A stretch of 64,000 nt of DNA from Octopus vulgaris (GCA_951406725.2 OX597834.1:31744001-31808000), one strand, 5' to 3'. Positions 3,688 through 63,221 are shown, counted from the first letter of the stretch. Numbers and translations are program-made. Notes: generated by a model not told the origin, from the letters alone.

Positions 3688-4882
3688 TACAGGATGCAAT
3701 GGGTAAATTGTTGCCATTTTATATTTTTAATTTCGCGCATGCTCATTGTTTGTTTTTGATTTTGTTGACTACACAGTGTAGTAGGGTCAGTTGGGCACTG
3801 TCTGTGAGAAAAACAGCACCACGATGCAATTCATTGTGCTAGAAATTTGGAAATGACATGCTGTACTGTTTGGCATTTGTGTCAGAAGCTCCAATACGAA
3901 CATTTCTGAGAGTTTGGGGGGCAATCTGAGGACAGTGCAGGAAGTTCAGAGAAAGTTGGATGGGTCTAATGGTGATTACGAAGGTGTGGCAGTTCAGAAA
4001 ACTCACTCTGTTCTGACAAGAGAAGAACTGAATTGGTTGGTGAGATCCAGACCATGTCAATCAGGTTCATTGCCAGGGACATGGGAGTGCCTCAGTTGCT
4101 TATCAGGTAGGTAGTGCATGGAGACATTTGATATTCCTCATACAAGATGAGAAAGGGCCAATTTTTATCCCAAACCATCAAGGACAAGAAACTCAAGCAT
4201 CCCCTCCAACTCAACATATTTTGGTTTTTCTCAGACAAGAAAAATTTTTGTCAGGATCAGAGGGTGAACACACAGAACAACTGTTGGCTTGCTGTGTCCT
4301 CAAAACATGTACTGAGAGAGATAAAAATCAAACATCCAGTCAACATCATGGTATTTGGAGTGATCGCTAGCGATGGAGATGTTTTGCCACCATTTATCTT
4401 TGCACACATCCACAGACTCAACACAGAAGCCTACATCAAGTGCCTGGGGGAGGTAGTGCTGCCCTGGCTCAATACAGTGGCTGCTGGAAGACCCTATGTC
4501 TGGCAATAGGACTGACCTATGCCACACAAGCAGGAGAACCCAGTCATGGTTGTCAGATAATTTCTGCAGCCATATCACCCCTAACATCTGGCCACCTAAC
4601 TCCCCACATTGCAACCCCCTTGATTATTATGTGTGGGGCTCACTTGAGCAAGAGAGCAACAAAACTCCTTGTAACACCAAAGATGAACTGAAGGTAAGGA
4701 TTATGGCAGCACTCACCAACTTAAACAAGGAGACCATCCAGAAGAGTTGCAGGAGATTCTGAAGTCATCTGGAGGCCGTGGTTGAAGCCAATGTTGATTT
4801 TATTGAATAAATTTACTCTAATATTTCAAGATATTTTTATGTAATTTTGGTAAATATGTCTGTTAAAATGAAATGTCACTGT
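3688..4882 (+). mobile_element. Decayed Tc1/mariner DNA transposon, DD37D (maT-like)
   Basis: Frameshifted transposase: WFFSDKKNF, VFGVIASDG, YVWQ(Q)D..CHTS..WPPNSPHCNPLDYYVWG, with about 37 residues between the second and third catalytic D after frameshift repair. Left end TA-CAGGATGC. Confidence 0.88.
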
Positions 4883-49550: not shown

Positions 49551-49585
49551 TTTATTGAAATTTATAATGAAAACATTGTTTTATT
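49551..49585 (-). terminator. Candidate polyadenylation signals (two AATAAA) of the O-methyltransferase
   Basis: TTTATT on + strand at 49580-49585 and 49551-49556, about 45-75 nt past the stop codon. Confidence 0.55.
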
Positions 49586-49627: not shown

Positions 49628-49684
49628 TTAAATGTCTTCAACTCTGCGAACCAATGCGATACCATCTCGAACTGGCAGCAGCAC
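49628..49684 (-). CDS. O-methyltransferase last coding exon ([18 protein letters not shown])
   Basis: Not in the ORF track; read by hand. Acceptor CTTTCCAAACTTCAG|GTG; encodes the family C-terminal LPxRDG motif; TAA stop. Confidence 0.92.
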   Translation of the reverse strand: MLLPVRDGIALVRRVEDI

Positions 49685-50162
49685 CTGAAGTTTGGAAAGA
49701 AGACGAGAGTTTAGTATATTCTTACACAGGTTGTTTTAGCTTTGTTTCAGTCATTGGACTGTGGCCATGCTGGAGCACTGCCTCAAAGGGTTTCATCAAA
49801 TAACTCCACCTCAGTTTTTGTTTTCTTTTTTTTTAATTCTGGTAATTATTCTATCAGTCTTTTTTGATGAACTGCTAAGTTATGAGGGCATACACAAACA
49901 CAGACACACACACACGGATATACATGCTCTTTTACTCTTTTATTTGTTTCCATCCTTTGGCTGCGGTCATGCTGGAGCACTGCCTTTAGTCGAACAAATG
50001 AACCCCAGGACTTATTCTTTGTAATTCCTAGTACTTATTCTATCGGTCTCTTTTGCTGAACCGCTAAATTACGGGGACATAAACACACCAACATTGGTTG
50101 TCAAGCAATGCTAGAGGGACAAACACAGACACACAAACATATATATATATATGTATACACAT

Positions 50163-50197
<35 letters not shown>

Positions 50198-50487
50198 ACA
50201 CATATATATATATATATATATGTATACACATACATATATATATATATATACACATACATATATATATATATACACATACATATATATATATACATACATA
50301 TATATATACACATACATATATATATACACATACATATATATATATATATACACATACATATATATATACACATACATATATATATATATACACATACATA
50401 TATATATACACATATATATATATATATATACACATACATATATATACACATACATATATATATATATACACATATACATATATATAT

Positions 50488-50522
<35 letters not shown>

Positions 50523-50634
50523 CATACATACACACATACATATATATATATATACACATACATGTATATATATGACGGGCTTCTTTCAGTTTCCGTCTAC
50601 CAAATCCACTCACAAGGCTTTGGTCGACCCAAGG

Positions 50635-50673
<39 letters not shown>

Positions 50674-53642
50674 ATGAGCTTCTCTCAGTTTCTGTCTAGC
50701 AAGGTTTCACTTGCAAGGCTCTGTTAACACCCAGCCATGGTTGCAGTAAAGACCCATTGTGTGAGATGCTGTGTATTAGTCGAAAAATATCATGTGAAAT
50801 ATAACAAGAACGTCTGTATATATGAGTGGTGTTATGTCATCTGTTGAGTTGAATGAGGAAGTACAAGCATGTGTGTGTATGTATGTGAGTGTGTGTTTGC
50901 ATGCAAGAGGCGCAGGAGTGGCTGTGTGGTAAGTAGCTTGCTAACCAACCACATGATTCCGGATTCAGTCCCACTGCGTGGCACCTTGGGCAAGTGTCTT
51001 CTGCTATAGCCCCGGGCCGACCAATGCCTTGTGAGTGGATTTGGTAGACGGAAACTGAAAGAAGCCTGTCGTATATATGTATATGTGTGTGTGTTTGTCC
51101 CCCTAGCATTGCTTGATGCTGGTGTGTTTACGTCCCCGTCACTTAGTGGTTCGGCAAAAGAGACCGATAAAATAAGTACTAGGCTTACAAAGAATAAGTC
51201 CCGGGGTCGATTTGCTCGACTAAAGGCGGTGCTCCAGCATGGCCACAGTCAAATGACTGAAACAAGTAAAAGTGTTTGTCGATGTGTGTGTGGCACATCA
51301 TAACCATTTAGATATTTATATAAATGGCTTAATGAGGGGAGGAAGAACAATTACCATAAATCGCTCTTTACAAATAAATTAACACAACAACCAGTCATCA
51401 CTCGAGAATGCATATGACTTAGCAACATGAAGCATTCAGTCTCTAAATAATCCCATCCAGACACAGACACCTTTTCAAAGCTGCTCTCACCCTTGGCTTA
51501 GTACATGACATGACATGACACCCAGATTTAAGAAGAGAAAGGGTGGTACCAGTACTTGGCTGGTACACATTTACAGCCAAGTAGACTGAAGCAAATTGAA
51601 ATAAAGTGATGCCTTGCTCAAATGTTGCTAGATCAAAGGTAAAACACAGGGAAAGTAAGGGCACGTTCATAAATAAGTGTGGGAATGAAATTTGTTTAGC
51701 AGGTGCAAACCCAGTTTTTCAGGAGGATGTGAAAAGCATTTTCATTGTCCCCCACCACCACCCAAAAACAATTTGAGCAGGTGTGCCTGCACCCCTGTCC
51801 CCTTACACAGTTAAATAGTCTCCTAGAATAATTAGCAAAATCCACAGTACATGTCACCAGTTTGTACTCCCTACCTGATTGTACTTGTATGAAGTACAGT
51901 GAGATGATTTTCATATAAAGTGCATTAACCCTTTTGATACCAACCTGGCTGAAACCACCTCTGGCTCTGTAGTATAAATGTTTTGTTTTCATAAGTTTTG
52001 AATTAAAATCTTCCACCAAACCTTAGTCACAATTTATGTTCCTAACACTAGCTTAATGATAACTTACTAAATTCTTTGTTATATTCAAAATTAATTGAAA
52101 GAAACACAGAGCATCTCAAAATGAATAAAGTAACAAAAGAATTAATGACAGTTGCTTCCCATTGGACCCTATGGAAGAGAGCCTGAGGAATTCATCCCTA
52201 AGATATTCCAAGGAACAGGTGGTGGTTAGCATCAGAATTGTTAGCATTCTGGGCAAAATGCTTCATAGCATTTCATTCATCTTCACATTCTGAGTTCAAA
52301 TTCCACCAAGGTGCGCTTAGCCTTTCATTCTTTCACTGTCGATAAAATAAGATCCCATTGAGTGCAGGGGTCAATGTAATCAACTTACACCTTTCCCCGA
52401 AACCCAAGACCCTCCCAGAAACAGTGGGTGGAGAAGATGAAGGGAAAGATGGTATCCATACCTGTTCAACACGTGGGTCATCAATAATTGCTTTTTGAAC
52501 TCGTGCCATGACAGTATTTTCACAGCCTTTTTGAAGATAAGGTTCACCAAACCAGTAGATGTTATCAAAAGCAATGGTTCCTCGTGGGGCCAATATGTTA
52601 TTGTCCAACGCTGACTAAAATTTACAAAAATCAAAGACAAAAAGAAACACATAAGAAAATAAATAAAATAATCAACAAAGAATAATAATAAAAATTCTCA
52701 AACTGAATATATTAACCATCATCATCATCGTCATTATTTGAGTGGAACTGGTAAGCCAAAGAACTGCACCAAGCTCCAGTCTGATTTGGTTTCTACAGCT
52801 GGATGCTCTTCCAAATGCCAGCCACTCCACGGAGTGTACTTGGTGCCCTTTATGAGCCACTGGCATGGGTACCTTTAACATGTCACTGGCCACAACTAAG
52901 TTTGACATGTTTTCTCAAGCACAGAAAATCACCAACTGTCTCAGTCACTTTCCATTGCCTTTCCATGAGACTCAACAACCAAACATCATATTTCACCACC
53001 TCATCCCTTGTTTTCCTGGGTCTACCTCTTCCAAAATTTCCTTCCACAGTTAGAGATCAGCACTTCTTTACACAGCTGTCCCCGTCCATACACATCACAT
53101 GACCATACCAACACAGTCATCTCTCTTGCACACCACATCTTATGCCTAACTTTTCCCTGTCGAACATGCGCACTGACATTGTACATCCAGCGAAGCATAC
53201 TGGCTTCATTTCTTTCAAGTCTATTCATGTCCTCAGTGATTACAGCCCATGTTTCACTTCCATGTAGAGTGGGTGTTTGCACACAGGTATCATACAATCT
53301 GCCTTTCACTGAGAGAGAGGCTCTTTGTCACCAACAAAAAGTAGAAGCTCTCTGAACTATACCCAGCCCATTCTTATTCTCGCAGCTACACTCTCAGACC
53401 ATCCTCCTGATTTTATAATAATAATGAAATTTTTGTATACAGTGCTCAGGTGCACCTAGGTAACCTGTATATATGTCATTATGTCACCAAATCTATCATC
53501 ATCATCGATATCATACTACTACTACTACTACTTTCCTCACTATATGCAACAAATATATAGACAAGCAAACAGACAGACGCAGGTAAACAGACAATAGAGA
53601 CACATGGACAGACAGATTTAAGTATTATGCATATATATATAC

Positions 53643-53677
<35 letters not shown>

Positions 53678-56164
53678 ACTGGACAAGTAGACAGACATGC
53701 TGTGTTACCTTGAAGTAGTCTACATATCCAGACTTGTCTGCATCGATGAAGATAAAGTCTGCCTTTACACCTTCCTTTGCCAGGGTCTTCAATGTCTCCA
53801 GGGCAGGGCCTAGGGATGAGGAACAAAAAGGAGTGAGTGAGGGGTTAGGGATGTTATTCCCATTACTACAACCCATGACATACCCTTTTACACAAACCCA
53901 CCACCACCATCACACTTGTGCACTCACATACACCCAAGGTTTCTTTGAATGTTACTCTTTACAAATGTGTCTTGATGAAGACAGAAGGGGTCAGGAGACG
54001 TGAGTTATGTGACTATATCCCAACATCCCACTTGACCATGTGAACACATCCCACATGAGTCACTATGGTAACACTCCAGGTGACCACATTTCACATGCGG
54101 TAACACCACATGTGAATGCATCCCACGTCCCCCTCTTCATCTGTTCACTTGAAGAATGTTACCACGTGAGGTGGGCAACATGTGGGATGCATTTAGATGG
54201 GGTGTAAGACTCACTGTGACCACATTCCATGTAAACACATCCCATATGACCAGAGAAAATATAGTAACATTCTATGTGAACACAACCTACGTGTTCACAT
54301 GCTGTATGAGTACACTCCATGTGTTCTCATTCCATGTCTCCAAGTGAGTGTTGAAAATTGCAATAAGGAATGCATTGATGTGAGCATCAATGAACAGTGC
54401 ATTAAAATAAATGGTAGATTTATGCATGCATTAGAGAGAGTACTGACCACTGCATGAAACAGCATTGAGGGTGCATTAGGGTGAAGAGTATATTAATGAA
54501 GGATATACAAGAAGTGCATCAAGGAGTGAACTTATGCTGGGCAAACGTGCACCATGTGCTTACCAATTTTGACGGTGATTTTCTTGCCGTGTGGACTTTT
54601 ATCAAAGAAGCTGCGACCAGATTTCTCAAGGTAGGGTTCAATGTCACACGCAAACAACTGTCCATCGGCCGGAAGGGCCTCAGCCATGGACAAACTTGCA
54701 AATCCGGTAAACATGCCAATTTCTATCACAGTTTTTGCTTTCTGCATGCTGACCAGCATCTTGAGGACTTGACCTGCAAACACAGAAATCATAGGGGTTA
54801 GTATTGAGAATGAACAAGTGGTAGGGGATAGGATGGTGGTGGTGGTGGTGTTGGGGTTTGATGATTTTCTTTGTTGCAAAATTTTCGTACGAAGTTTAGT
54901 GTAATATTCAGAGGAAATCTAAGTACCCCAACATCGTTGTCACCACCACCAACAACAACATCATCTTCATCCCATACTTGCATGAGTCAAATGGGATTTG
55001 TCAACACAGATTTGCTATGACTGGATGCTCTTCCTGTCACCAATGCTCATCTATTTCCATGGAAGATAAAAAATGAAAGACACCCCTTCCATGACAGACG
55101 CTTAAAACTATCAAGGAAGACAAAGACACAGTAACACACACACACATCATAATTTTAGCATCCACTTTTCCATGCTCACATGGATCAGATAGAATTTGTT
55201 GCTGCAGATTTTCTATGACTAGATGCTCTTCCTGTCACCAACCTTCTCCTGTTTCCGAGTAAGGTAATATTTCCCAATAGCCAGATCTGTTTTCCACGGA
55301 AGATTGGAAATGAAAGTCACACCTTCCATCCATTTGTGTCAGTGACACTCATTTTGCAACTATCACATGATGTCAAGACAAGGTCTCACACACAAATATA
55401 TGAAAAGTTCTTGGATTTGGGTAAAAGCAAATACAATTATGATTTTATCCAATATAAATGATTTGGTGATTAAACGCAGATTCATACACTTATTGCAGCC
55501 CTAAAGATTTTCTAAGCCCTGTGAAAGAACTTGGAGGGCTGAGCTTCCAACCAGGCCTTCCATGATACCCTTAAAACCAGGAATTTTTCAGCACCCCCTC
55601 ATATACGATGGGCTTCTTTTAGTTTCTATATACCAAATCCTGCAGCTTGGCACCAATGATCACAATTCATTTCTACAGCTGAGTGAACTGGAGCAACATT
55701 AAATAAAGTGTCTTGCTCAAGAATACAACACACAACCTGATCTGAGAATTGAACCCACTACCTCATGATTGTGGGCCTGACGCTCTAAGCACTGATCCAT
55801 ACACACATACAAACCATTCATGGAAGTGTCCCAGTATGGCCATAGTTCCATTGAACGAAATGAGTAAAAGATAATAGATACCTGCCCATTCTCCCGATGC
55901 CATATTAGGGCTTAGCCTATACTGTGTGACTTTCTGCTGGGCCAAAAGTTCCCAATTATTGGTGTTAGTAAACTGAAGAATTTCCTGACGAACTGGTGTC
56001 ACTGGAGTGTTTAAGTTAATTGAATAACAGTCACGCTTGATGTGCATCTGTAAGATTTTCAAAAGTCGTTCTTTGGTCTCTTTGTCTTCAGTGGTCTCGT
56101 ACCAAAGTTTTAGCTCCTCCACAGCTGGGTCATGTAAATTTAAACCTTCTAAACTGTTGTCCAT
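49628..56164 (-). CDS. SAM-dependent O-methyltransferase (Methyltransf_3 / caffeoyl-CoA OMT-like, MysB-like). 5 coding exons, 267 aa: join(56164-55882, 54773-54564, 53809-53709, 52614-52462, 49684-49628)
   Basis: Exon lengths sum to 804 nt with no internal stop. All four introns are GT..AG with matching phases (1,1,0,0). Motifs: VIEIGMFTG (SAM-binding motif I), [14 protein letters not shown] and C-terminal VLLPVRDG. Start context is AAACAATGG with an in-frame TAA 6 nt upstream. Confidence 0.93.
49926..50637 (-). mobile_element. SINE family A with its internal microsatellite expanded to ~440 bp
   Basis: SINE halves at 49926-50135 and 50573-50637 flank a compound (TA/CA) array. Confidence 0.8.
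50909..51271 (+). mobile_element. tRNA-derived SINE family A (representative full-length copy)
   Basis: A-box TGGCTGTGTGG, B-box GATTCAGTCCC, CORE-like CCTTGGGCAAGT, internal TA/TG microsatellite. Further copies near 11455-11772(-), 25058-25345(+), 25364-25738(-), 60135-60432(+) and 63912-64000(+). Confidence 0.85.
51929..52141. mobile_element. piggyBac-type MITE (degenerate right end), in O-methyltransferase intron 4
   Basis: TTAA|CCCTTTTGATAC ... GTAACAAAAGAA|TTAA. Confidence 0.6.
52462..52614 (-). CDS. O-methyltransferase coding exon 4 ([18 protein letters not shown]...DPRVEQ)
   Basis: Acceptor TTTTAG|TCA, donor CAG|GTATGG; 153 nt, phase 0-0. Confidence 0.92.
52880..53410 (-). mobile_element. 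RTE LINE 3' fragment in O-methyltransferase intron 3
   Basis: [37 protein letters not shown]. Confidence 0.8.
53709..53809 (-). CDS. O-methyltransferase coding exon 3 (GPALETLK...[14 protein letters not shown])
   Basis: Acceptor CCCTAG|GC, donor AAG|GTAACA; FIDADK motif. Confidence 0.95.
54564..54773 (-). CDS. O-methyltransferase coding exon 2 (GQVLKMLV...EIGMFTG...[12 protein letters not shown])
   Basis: Acceptor TTTGCAG|GT, donor ATTG|GTAAGC; contains the SAM-binding motif. Confidence 0.95.
55398..55603. mobile_element. Mariner-type MITE in O-methyltransferase intron 1
   Basis: Imperfect TIRs TGAAAAGTTCTTGG ... CCAGGAATTTTTCAGCACCCCCTCATA. Confidence 0.55.
55882..56164 (-). CDS. O-methyltransferase coding exon 1 (MDNSLEG...NMASGEWA/G)
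   Basis: ORF 55763..56164; donor GCAG|GTATCT at 55882/55881, phase 1. Confidence 0.88.
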
Positions 56165-56303
56165 TGTTTACTGTTTGGGTGTTTGGCTGGTCAGGTTAGA
56201 GTTGGCAAAATGTCAGTCAAAGTAGGGAAGAAGTAACCAGAGAATAAAAAGAGGAAAGAAAAAAGAAAAAAAATTAATTATAACATACAATAGATACACA
56301 TAT

Positions 56304-56875
56304 ACAGGATGCGGTGAACGAACTGTTGTCTAAGTTACACAAAAATGAAAATAACACTGACATCTCATTTTAACAAATGCATTTATCAAAATTACATAAA
56401 AATATCTTTGAATACTAAAGAGTAAATTTATTCAATAAAATCGCCATTGGCTTCAACCATAACCTCCAGACAACTTCGGAATCTCCTGCAACTCTTTTGG
56501 GTGGCCTTCTTGGTTTTAAGTTAATGAATGTTGCCATAATCCTTGCCTTCAGCTCATCTTTGGTGTTACAAGGAGTTTTGTTGGTCTCTCGTTCAACTGC
56601 ACTCCACACAATAATCAAAGGGGTTGCAGTGTGGGGAGTTAGGGGTAATATGGCTGCAGAAATTGTCAGACAGCCATGACTGGGTTCTCCTGCTTGTGTG
56701 ACATAGGGCAGTCCTATTGCCAGACATAGGGTCTTCCAGCAGCCACCCTCTTCACCCAGGGCAGTACTACCTCCTCCAGGCACTTGATGTAAGCTCTCTG
56801 TGTTGAGTCTGAAGCTATGTGGGAAGATGGAGGCGTAACATCACCATCATTAGTGATCACTCCAAACAATGATGT
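56304..56875 (-). mobile_element. Second, 5'-truncated copy of the DD37D (maT-like) transposon, upstream of O-methyltransferase exon 1
   Basis: Homologous to 4340-4882 (e.g. ETNKTPCNTKDELKARIMA); terminal TA-CAGGATGC at 56302-56311. Confidence 0.85.
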
Positions 56876-58559: not shown

Positions 58560-59480
58560 TCCTATGTGAAGGGAAGCGCAATCAAAGAAGCCTGGGTTAT
58601 AAAAAAAACATCAAGTCAAACCCAAAGGCCTTCTTCCATTATGCCTAAGAAACAGCCTCAGTATGATGCAAAATAGCACCCCTCTTCCAGAAGGATGGTT
58701 CCCTCACAGATAACCCAACCAAGATCAGTGAGTTTCTGAGAGACCAGTTCAAACATGTCTTTACTAACCTGTTGGGACACAGACAAGTGAATGAACCAGT
58801 GGATTTTTTTGTCACCTCACCTATAACCAGCGAGGCAGTTATGATGGATTACATCGACATTGTGGAAGAAGATATAATACTAGCCATAGATGAGGTTGAT
58901 GCAAACTCATCTGCTGGCCCTGATGGTTTCCCAGCAATCCTCGTCAAATCGTGTAAACGTGCCCAGGTGAAACCACTACAGATTCTCTTCCAGAGCTTTC
59001 TTGCAAATAGCCAGCTGCCAAGCAAATTAAAGGAGGGAATAATATGCCCAATCCATAAGAGAAGAAGCAGAGCAGATGCCAATAATTATAGGCCTATCTC
59101 TCTGACTTCAAACATCAGCAAAGTCATGGAACGATTAGTCAGAAGGAAACGAATTGCATTCCTTAATGAAAACAATTTGCTGAGTGATACCCAGCATAGT
59201 TTTCGAACAGGTAGAAGCTGCCTGACCCAGCTCCTATCGGACTATGACTAGGTATTGAGGCAGTTACTTGAAAACTCAAATATGGACGTAATATACTTTG
59301 GCTTTGCAAAAGCTTTTGATGAAGTGGATCATGGTATGATATTCCACAAACTGCGTGATTCTGGCATAGCTGGAAAGCTTGGAGAATGGTTACATGACTT
59401 TCTGAAATATAGAAGTCAGGCAGTAGTGGCCAATGGACCCACTTCAGAGAGAATACGAATAGTGAGTGGTGTACAGACAT
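58560..59480 (+). mobile_element. CR1/L2/Jockey-group LINE RT fragment (stop-disrupted)
   Basis: SSAGPDGFPA..ICPIHK..NYRPISLTSNISKVMERLV..QHSFRTGRSCLTQLL..DVIYFGFAKAFDEVDH. Confidence 0.9.
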
Positions 59481-60938: not shown

Positions 60939-61367
60939 TTAAAGTAGTTCTCCTTGTAGACACAATTGTCAGTAATCATACTGTTTCCATTTCTCTCAGC
61001 CAATATTTTTACATTAGCCTTCTTTCAAACTCTAAATAATGGAACATACAGCTGACCTTGTGAGAAGATTTGGGTCAGAAGATATATTCCAGTTTGTTCA
61101 AAAGTCTGTCTCTGAGCCTTGTTGCATGTCAAGGCAAAAGCTGGCTTGATAGGAAATAGTTTGCATGTAAATCATCATTATCATCGTTTAACGTCCGTTT
61201 TCCGCGCTAGCACGGGTTGGACGGTTCGACCGGGGTCTGGGAAGCCAGGAGGCTGCACCAGGCTCCAGTCTGATCTGGCAGTGTTTCTACAGCTGGATGC
61301 CCTTCCTAACGCCAACCACTCCGCGAGTGTAGTGGGTGCTTTTTACGTGCCACCTGCACAGGTGCCA

Positions 61368-61790
61368 GAATGTGAATGGAAATTCCATTTCTTGAGATAC
61401 GTGTGGTATTCTTGGGATTAGCAGAGCTGATCTTGCATAAGGACCAGAAGCAACCACAGCTTCAATAACATGACCATGTGAACTGACAATGATGTAGCAT
61501 ATACCATTGCAATGTCCATTAGTAGCATCTACATTTCTCAGAAGTATTATGCATTGTTTTCTCTTCAATTTGAGAATGTGTGGTGGAAACCCTGATGGTG
61601 TAAGCTTGTTGATGAACTCAATTGGATACAGAATTTCATTATCAACTGTATCTGAGATTATGTATATTTTTAGCCCACCAGATAACAGAAAATTATTCAC
61701 AAATTGTGCTATTTCATTTGTTGGCGTAACAATGGTTGTATTTGCAAGCCACACAGGGTTTGTGAAGTTATTTTTGAGGTCAGCATATAC
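61368..61790 (-). mobile_element. Helitron Pif1-like helicase fragment
   Basis: IVTPTNE..VNN..YPIEFINKLTPSGFPPHILKLK..IILLRNVD..GHCNG..LLIPRIP..FPF. Confidence 0.88.
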
Positions 61791-61984
61791 AAAATCACAT
61801 TTTTTTTTTTATGCCCTGCAACCATATATGCATATGTATGTATATATGCATATATTTTATATTATTATATGATCATATGCTACACATCCTTTTCCAAGTA
61901 AGTTTTATATATATATATATATATATAGATAGATAGATAGATATACATATATATATATGTATGTATATGTATATATATATGTAT

Positions 61985-62610: not shown

Positions 62611-63221
62611 CTGGTACTTAGTCTATCGATGTCTTATTACCGAACCGCTAAGTTACGTGGACGTAATGAAACCATTACTAGTTGTCAAAACGAGAGCCTG
62701 GTACTTAGTCTATCAGTGTCTTATTACCGAACCGCTAAGTTACGTGAACGTAATGAAACCATTACTAGTTGTCAAAACGAGAGCCTGGTACTTAGTCTAT
62801 CAGTGTCTTATTGCCGAACCGCTCTAAGTTACGTGGACGTAATGAAACCATTACTAGTTGTCAAAACGAGAGCCTGGTACTTAGTCTATCAGTGTCTTAT
62901 TGCCGAACCGCTAAGTTACGTGGACGTAATGAAACCATTACTAGTTGTCAAAACGAGAGCCTGGTACTTAGTCTATCAGTGTCTTATTGCCGAACCGCTA
63001 AGTTACGTGGACGTAATGAAACCATTACTAGTTGTCAAAACGAGAGCCTGGTACTTAGTCTATCAGTGTCTTATTGCCGAACCGCTAAGTTACGTGGACG
63101 TAATGAAACCATTACTAGTTGTCAAAACGAGAGCCTGGTACTTAGTCTATCAGTGTCTTATTGCCGAACCGCTAAGTTACGTGGACGTAATGAAACCGTT
63201 ACTAGTTGTCAAAACGAGAGC
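62611..63221. repeat. Tandem array, 7 x 87 bp, derived from an internal SINE segment
   Basis: Units start at 62611, 62698, 62785, 62874, 62961, 63048 and 63135; near-identical, with one 2-bp insertion. Confidence 0.95.

Follow-up and report, generated by a model that had tools for sequence, protein, structure and literature searches.

The window of Octopus vulgaris DNA analyzed here (64,000 nt, GCA_951406725.2 OX597834.1:31744001-31808000, positions counted from its first letter) contains an intact O-methyltransferase (OMT) gene on the minus strand, running from 56164 to 49628, with five coding exons, 804 nt, 267 aa and zero internal stops. The four introns are all GT-AG, measure 1108, 754, 1094 and 2777 nt and lie in phases 1, 1, 0 and 0. 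The protein is identical to the O. vulgaris model CAI9738464.1 (P0412), and the gene is already annotated in this species; 4 of 267 residues differ from O. sinensis XP_029649191.1, which is named 'O-methyltransferase MdmC'. Introns 1-3 are joined at the exact predicted sites by contigs of 4/4 sequencing runs (4 studies), which are RNA by an automated guess and offer no ranking of tissues by contig depth. In one of the runs, the shorter arm of the intron-1 joint is just 24 letters long. Intron 4 follows from two agreeing protein models (O. vulgaris and O. sinensis), not from contigs, and the O. bimaculoides models P0413 and P0414 lack exon 5. In three runs the match ends at an AG acceptor located 23 bases ahead of the ATG, so a non-coding exon probably precedes the ATG exon; it was not found in the 64-kb window. 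An artefact or bacterial contamination is ruled out by the introns and their splicing. An earlier note on this DNA had described an intact five-exon, 267-aa OMT of a probable cephalopod, and both points were borne out.

Table 1. Positions of the OMT gene features in the window
Feature	Position	Strand	Description
Coding exon 1	55882..56164	-	ATG; aa 1-94 and first base of G95; long helical N-terminal extension, conserved W71
Intron 1	54774..55881	-	GT-AG, phase 1 in G95; seen spliced; site apparently common to gastropods, sea urchin and vertebrate MT-Ox (gene-model breakpoints)
Coding exon 2	54564..54773	-	aa 95-165; S-adenosylmethionine (SAM)-binding EIGMFTG motif; holds the target of the published 'COMT' quantitative PCR amplicon
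Intron 2	53810..54563	-	GT-AG, phase 1; seen spliced
Coding exon 3	53709..53809	-	aa 165-198; FIDADK with D187, K190
Intron 3	52615..53708	-	GT-AG, phase 0; seen spliced
Coding exon 4	52462..52614	-	aa 199-249; D215-N216, GEPYL, DPRVEQ
Intron 4	49685..52461	-	GT-AG, phase 0; site apparently common to bivalves, gastropod and vertebrate MT-Ox (gene-model breakpoints); outside the contig-compared stretch
Coding exon 5	49628..49684	-	aa 250-267, TAA; agrees with P0412
Two putative AATAAA polyadenylation-like signals	49551..49585 (49585-49580, 49556-49551)	-	From sequence
Short 5' untranslated region	56165..56188	-	Behind AG acceptor 56188-56187; contigs of three runs end their match there

The protein matches Pfam PF01596 with 172.7 bits and belongs to the class I cation-dependent OMTs. 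Its predicted structure (pLDDT 96.2) consists of the class I OMT core and two extra N-terminal helices; the closest folds are SafC, a Leptospira OMT, CCoAOMT and SynOMT, with none of the solved structures above 32% identity and COMTD1 at 27%. The core residues D187, K190, D215 and N216 are conserved. By analogy with COMT and CCoAOMT, we take D187, D215 and N216 to bind the metal and K190 to act as base. No signal or anchor segment was found (the highest 19-residue hydropathy within residues 1-63 was 0.08), therefore the enzyme is likely cytosolic. COMTD1 carries an N-terminal membrane anchor.

The earlier note placed the protein with MysB of the mycosporine/4-deoxygadusol sunscreen pathway, beyond the likeness expected of COMTD1 or CCoAOMT, and our database queries agreed with that kinship. 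The whole-protein query returned cephalopod and gastropod proteins first, followed by cyanobacterial proteins with at most 218 bits (best 120 of 4529). The top named cyanobacterial match is flanked by a cyclase gene and an ATP-grasp gene. Among 151 cyanobacterial genomes, 18 contain a match at E<=1e-45, with a mysA-like neighbour in 16/18, a mysC-like neighbour in 17/18, and one or the other beside all 18 best matches; since these genes adjoin them, the bacterial relatives are true MysB. In four of the 18 loci (L010, L012, L018, L024) the mysB-adjacent cyclase shares only 39-40% identity with MysA of Aphanothece, against 68-77% in the others, and is perhaps a second cyclase type. When exon 2 was used as query, 78/90 matches were fusions of a methyltransferase with a short-chain dehydrogenase/reductase (SDR), of which 77 were fish-named or without name and one came from Artemia. 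They include zebrafish zgc:113054, an MT-Ox shown to convert 2-epi-5-epi-valiolone to gadusol (PMC4426668). The octopus protein is 44.4% identical to Aphanothece MysB, 44.5% to Danio MT-Ox (238 aa), 43.0% to Artemia MT-Ox and 36.0% to the Durusdinium DDGS-OMT fusion; it scores 204-218 bits with MysB-type proteins, 75 bits with human COMTD1 and about 26-31 with COMT. As judged from these alignments, vertebrate MT-Ox is the nearest animal enzyme of proven function, as close as MysB. NCBIfam yielded no model for the octopus protein or MysB, and an Atlas look-up of MysA gave fungal, bacterial and chordate clusters that are uninformative on molluscs.

Phylogenetic trees were built from 81 rows, chosen from 150 representatives and earlier matches and not including COMTD1, COMT or cnidarian enzymes. 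In the careful tree the octopus protein belongs to a 26-row clade (100/89*) in which all 17 named rows are molluscs: one chiton, five bivalves, nine gastropod rows and two cephalopods, i.e., four mollusc classes. The same clade was found in other trees with 98* and 96* in two and an unstarred 87 in a fourth. Together with MysB, MT-Ox, DDGS-OMT fusions and fungal/algal forms, it is split from general OMTs at 100/99*. That we are dealing with a real gene and a member of a mollusc-wide clade is almost certain. The MysB clade leaves out the octopus protein, so the earlier assignment to that clade did not hold in the careful tree, where the protein is not nested among MysBs (sisterhood to MysB is unrejected, with p-AU 0.43 in the approximately unbiased (AU) test). 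The proposed acquisition by cephalopods fails as well, as a cephalopod-specific transfer is ruled out by the four-class clade and the introns common to gastropods and bivalves. Several copies per genome are present in Gigantopelta, Haliotis, Pinctada and oysters (P0086-P0088, P0210/P0216, P0232/P0378, P0359-P0362), which suggests local family expansion.

The motifs that the earlier note considered distinctive of MysB are present in the octopus protein, but it shares them about equally with MT-Ox. DPRVEQV was found in 13/16 MysB, 13/17 MT-Ox and 2/67 outgroup OMTs. The long helical N-terminal extension with a conserved tryptophan was confirmed as a mark of the wider group, with W71 present in 16/16 MysB, 17/17 MT-Ox and 0/67 outgroup sequences. 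Other marks of the pathway enzymes are missing from the mollusc proteins: the N-terminal Pro and the GLDxY Gly occur in 0/19 mollusc-clade rows versus 88-100% of MysB, MT-Ox and fusions (the N-terminal TP was counted by alignment column; a regular expression also matched octopus at another place). At position E94 octopus has Ala versus Glu in 37/37, and an Arg at 44 is found in 15/19 mollusc-clade rows. By their defining features, the octopus gene is neither MysB nor MT-Ox; it is a new, mollusc-wide form of the MysB/MT-Ox lineage, with no partner gene in the window.

The origin of this lineage in animals was approached through intron positions. Breaks at the intron 4 site (between PRVEQ and VLLP) were found in MT-Ox models of loach, monitor lizard, frog and ostrich (P0074, P0424, P0426, P0430) and in Gigantopelta, Pinctada and Tegillarca models. 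At the intron 1 site (G95), breaks were found in carp (P0030), frog (P0423, P0427), Gigantopelta and Pomacea models, and two Diadema (sea urchin) models differ by three residues at the intron-1 codon; bird models starting MQGQ and the fragment P0419 were left out of this evidence. With 4-6 fish introns assumed, 2/4 introns would coincide by chance with a probability of 0.0001-0.0003 under uniform sites; the value rises to at most 0.054 when intron gain is restricted to sites following AG. These positions suggest that two introns are shared with vertebrate MT-Ox and one with sea urchin. In addition, Artemia MT-Ox groups with fish MT-Ox (99/88*). Based on the apparent common introns and this grouping, bilaterian inheritance is favoured over separate transfers, and we consider descent from an early bilaterian ancestor, not recent microbial borrowing, to be moderately probable.

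Several results count against such descent. The intron positions in other animals were read from breakpoints in protein models, not from genomic DNA; no counterpart of octopus introns 2 and 3 was seen in vertebrates, nor does octopus share the vertebrate intron that follows K177. The sister of the mollusc clade in the careful tree is a pair of proteins without species name (97/82*), and molluscs were never joined to animal MT-Ox in any free tree. When molluscs, animal MT-Ox and urchin were forced into one clade, the likelihood was 12.5 lower with p-AU 0.20, which is not rejected (the mixture-model AU test covered the animal clade alone). Under LG+G4 with 42 rows, the placement with animals reached 0.48, while placements as sister to MysB (0.43), as sister to the fusions (0.52) and as basal (0.81) were equally unrejected. 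The tree results also speak for an origin in which the mollusc stem received the gene by a horizontal transfer of its own, from an alga, protist or bacterium, apart from vertebrates, Artemia and urchins. The patchy spread among animals, the presence of MT-Ox in Vitrella, Pycnococcus and a chytrid, and the transfer that Osborn et al. proposed for vertebrates (PMC4426668) point in the same direction. This origin is less probable and appears rather unlikely, given that introns 1 and 4 are apparently shared, a single animal clade is not rejected and Artemia joins fish at 99/88*.

PMC4426668 reports MT-Ox only in vertebrates and two algae, with alga-to-vertebrate transfer proposed by its authors. 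We observed whole MT-Ox fusions in the brine shrimp Artemia franciscana (P0089), Vitrella, Pycnococcus and the chytrid Rhizophlyctis (P0219, P0404, P0295), a distribution wider than in that 2015 survey. Diadema encodes a stand-alone family member that retains the N-terminal TP mark (P0244, P0388) and is a candidate source of urchin-egg gadusol; gadusol is known from brine shrimp and urchin eggs (10.1101/2023.01.30.526370). Furthermore, 9/9 frog, lizard and bird MT-Ox models (P0423, P0424, P0425, P0427, P0429, P0430, P0431, P0433, P0435; some partial) lack EIGMFTG, the DADK Lys and the DN Asp, while their Ox domain is still 72-74% identical to that of Artemia. The methyltransferase half therefore looks inactive in tetrapod MT-Ox, a prediction that agrees with gadusol being listed as unreported outside fish among vertebrates in 10.1101/2023.01.30.526370.

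With respect to function, in the predicted soluble class I fold, EIGMFTG would hold SAM and D187/D215/N216 a divalent metal; K190 would serve as base, and the methyl group would go to one hydroxyl of a neighbouring pair, as in COMT and CCoAOMT. Both catechols and the enolised cyclitol in gadusol synthesis would be suited to such chemistry. The ancestor may have been an MT-Ox-like gadusol enzyme, of which molluscs would have retained the methyltransferase half and lost the N-terminal motifs shared by the pathway enzymes; they may use this half body-wide, in a COMT-like manner, on DOPA (3,4-dihydroxyphenylalanine)/dopamine-type or dietary diols. The earlier note's second suggestion, repurposing for another small molecule, is thus the reading we prefer, with the class of substrate inferred by analogy: we give an even chance to a Mg2+/SAM-dependent catechol- or enediol-type methyltransferase that was repurposed from the sunscreen lineage and acts on a non-sunscreen substrate.

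The strongest functional competitor is that the enzyme still serves sunscreen synthesis, methylating demethyl-(4-deoxy)gadusol from an unlinked cyclase, symbiont or food to yield UV screens of the gadusol or mycosporine-like amino acid (MAA) type in eggs, lens or skin. We searched the window for partners with tblastn and obtained zero matches for MysA (which served as a stand-in query for EEVS), MysC and the Ox domain. An Ox-domain search (8000 scored candidates, lengths 140-448 only) gave no mollusc name among the best 120 of 3155, a weak negative. Those 120 matches were vertebrate pieces followed mostly by SDRs without name or of actinobacterial origin; the nearest non-vertebrate relatives at these lengths (P0438-P0534) are stand-alone SDRs with 62-69% identity, the named ones mostly actinobacterial. 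Clade members occur in Gigantopelta (three models), Solemya (one) and Pomacea, which are vent, burrowing/sediment and freshwater animals, respectively. A sunscreen role is doubtful, given that the window contains no partner, three pathway motifs (TP, GLDxY, HxEGQ) are lost and molluscs that burrow or live at vents have members too. The four-gene MAA pathway is reported only from anthozoans among animals in PMC3640398 (2013 data), and MAAs of mollusc eggs vary with diet (PMC3083659).

Expression data point the same way. The 2012 octopus brain transcriptome paper (PMC3387010) lists 'COMT' primers, of which the forward one spans our exon 1-2 junction with 0 mismatches and the reverse one lies in exon 2 with two mismatches; the product of 212 nt agrees with that paper's numbering. 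According to the same source, octopus 'COMT' is expressed broadly, including internal organs. As weak leads, matched by name only, an 'O-methyltransferase MdmC' and tyrosinase increase together when mussels regrow their byssus (PMC12607631) and 'caffeoyl-CoA OMT' is listed alongside tyrosinase in pearl-oyster larvae (PMC4445274).

Other observations favour the sunscreen role and detract from repurposing. Every proven enzyme of the wider group performs that step (PMC4426668), mysA- or mysC-like genes adjoin the best cyanobacterial matches, and MAAs have been recorded from the lens and cornea of cuttlefish as well as from egg masses of molluscs (PMC3083659). Octopus keeps 15/24 signature columns, defined as common to MysB and MT-Ox and not the outgroup, with the MysB set picked by likeness to octopus; other mollusc-clade rows keep 3-13 (some are partial) and the outgroup 0-6. 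The tblastn partner search covered the window, and a cyclase may lie elsewhere in the genome. Broad expression is weak evidence, since expression of zebrafish MT-Ox, too, extends to sites other than skin (10.64898/2026.10.26.762048). On balance, the making or remodelling of sunscreens envisaged by the earlier note is weakened, since partners are missing, motifs are lost and expression is broad and internal, and we regard it as unlikely. Still more doubtful is a fuller scenario in which the gadusol methyltransferase would be an ancestral bilaterian gene, fused in vertebrates and brine shrimp (MT-Ox) and stand-alone in urchins and molluscs, with octopus using it to complete screens of the gadusol or MAA type, starting from precursors of dietary, symbiont or unlinked origin.

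Glycan methylation is generally placed in the Golgi, a site at odds with an enzyme that lacks a signal or anchor segment and is likely cytosolic. A role in making the 3-O/4-O-methyl hexoses typical of mollusc glycans is thus improbable, even with a wider group that acts on sugar-derived cyclitols, a mollusc-wide clade and snail glycans that are heavily O-methylated (PMC6272458). Least credible of all is a plain octopus COMT or COMTD1 orthologue, as the BLAST-based name in PMC3387010 and the common Pfam family PF01596 would have it, in view of the low COMTD1 and COMT scores, the 27% identity of the COMTD1 structure match, the 100/99* split of the long-N-terminus group from general OMTs (in a tree without COMTD1) and the missing hydrophobic N-terminus.

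In the literature searched, with most subscription papers outside its coverage, we found no report linking a mollusc enzyme to MysB or MT-Ox. In the published view, early vertebrates acquired MT-Ox from an alga and no other animals have it (PMC4426668). With the mollusc-wide branch, the urchin copy, the whole Artemia MT-Ox and the apparent shared introns, the origin of MT-Ox is now testable with public genomes; if true, an old animal inheritance would move the origin of the fish sunscreen enzyme far earlier than published. The question at stake is whether UV screens are completed by the molluscs themselves, or whether a COMT-like enzyme arose in them from a sunscreen lineage. The main relevance lies in the origin of animal gadusol synthesis and in the relabelling of the octopus 'COMT'.

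The long frames of the window showed no further evident host gene, and the remainder of the window consists of repeats and mobile-element pieces. A Helitron-like Pif1 helicase piece lies at 61290-61808 on the minus strand (PF21530, E 3.5e-11) and a LINE-like (long interspersed nuclear element) reverse-transcriptase piece at 58667-59248 on the plus strand (PF00078, E 4.7e-5). Two related decayed frames at 4132-4759 and 56415-56840 resemble Tc1/mariner transposases by eye, with no Pfam match. Seven 87-bp tandem copies with 98% identity occupy 62611-63221 and resemble, by eye, a piece of a common octopus short repeat that is also found at 50020-50110.

Compared with known systems, the octopus protein is alike to vertebrate MT-Ox (zebrafish) over 238 aa, with identity reaching 72% in exon 2, and in the long N-terminal extension, the core residues and two apparent intron positions. 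Unlike MT-Ox, it stops after aa 267, without the C-terminal SDR oxidoreductase domain, lacks the TP, GLDxY and HxEGQ marks, forms a separate clade in every free tree, and has no EEVS-type neighbour seen in the window. With cyanobacterial MysB it has 42-45% identity and EIGMFTG, GEPYL, DPRVEQV and W71 in common; however, the octopus gene is intron-bearing, unclustered and outside the MysB clade, and three N-terminal or pre-SAM marks are missing from its product. The dinoflagellate DDGS-OMT fusions of Durusdinium belong to the same wider group, but are only 36% identical, and octopus has no fused cyclase; no named cnidarian DDGS-OMT fusion was included in the comparison set. Class I cation-dependent OMTs such as SafC, SynOMT, plant CCoAOMT, human COMTD1 and COMT have the same fold (TM-score 0.58-0.71) and D-K-D-N core, whereas their identity is 22-32% and the two additional helices at the N-terminus of the octopus protein (aa 13-50) are absent from them.

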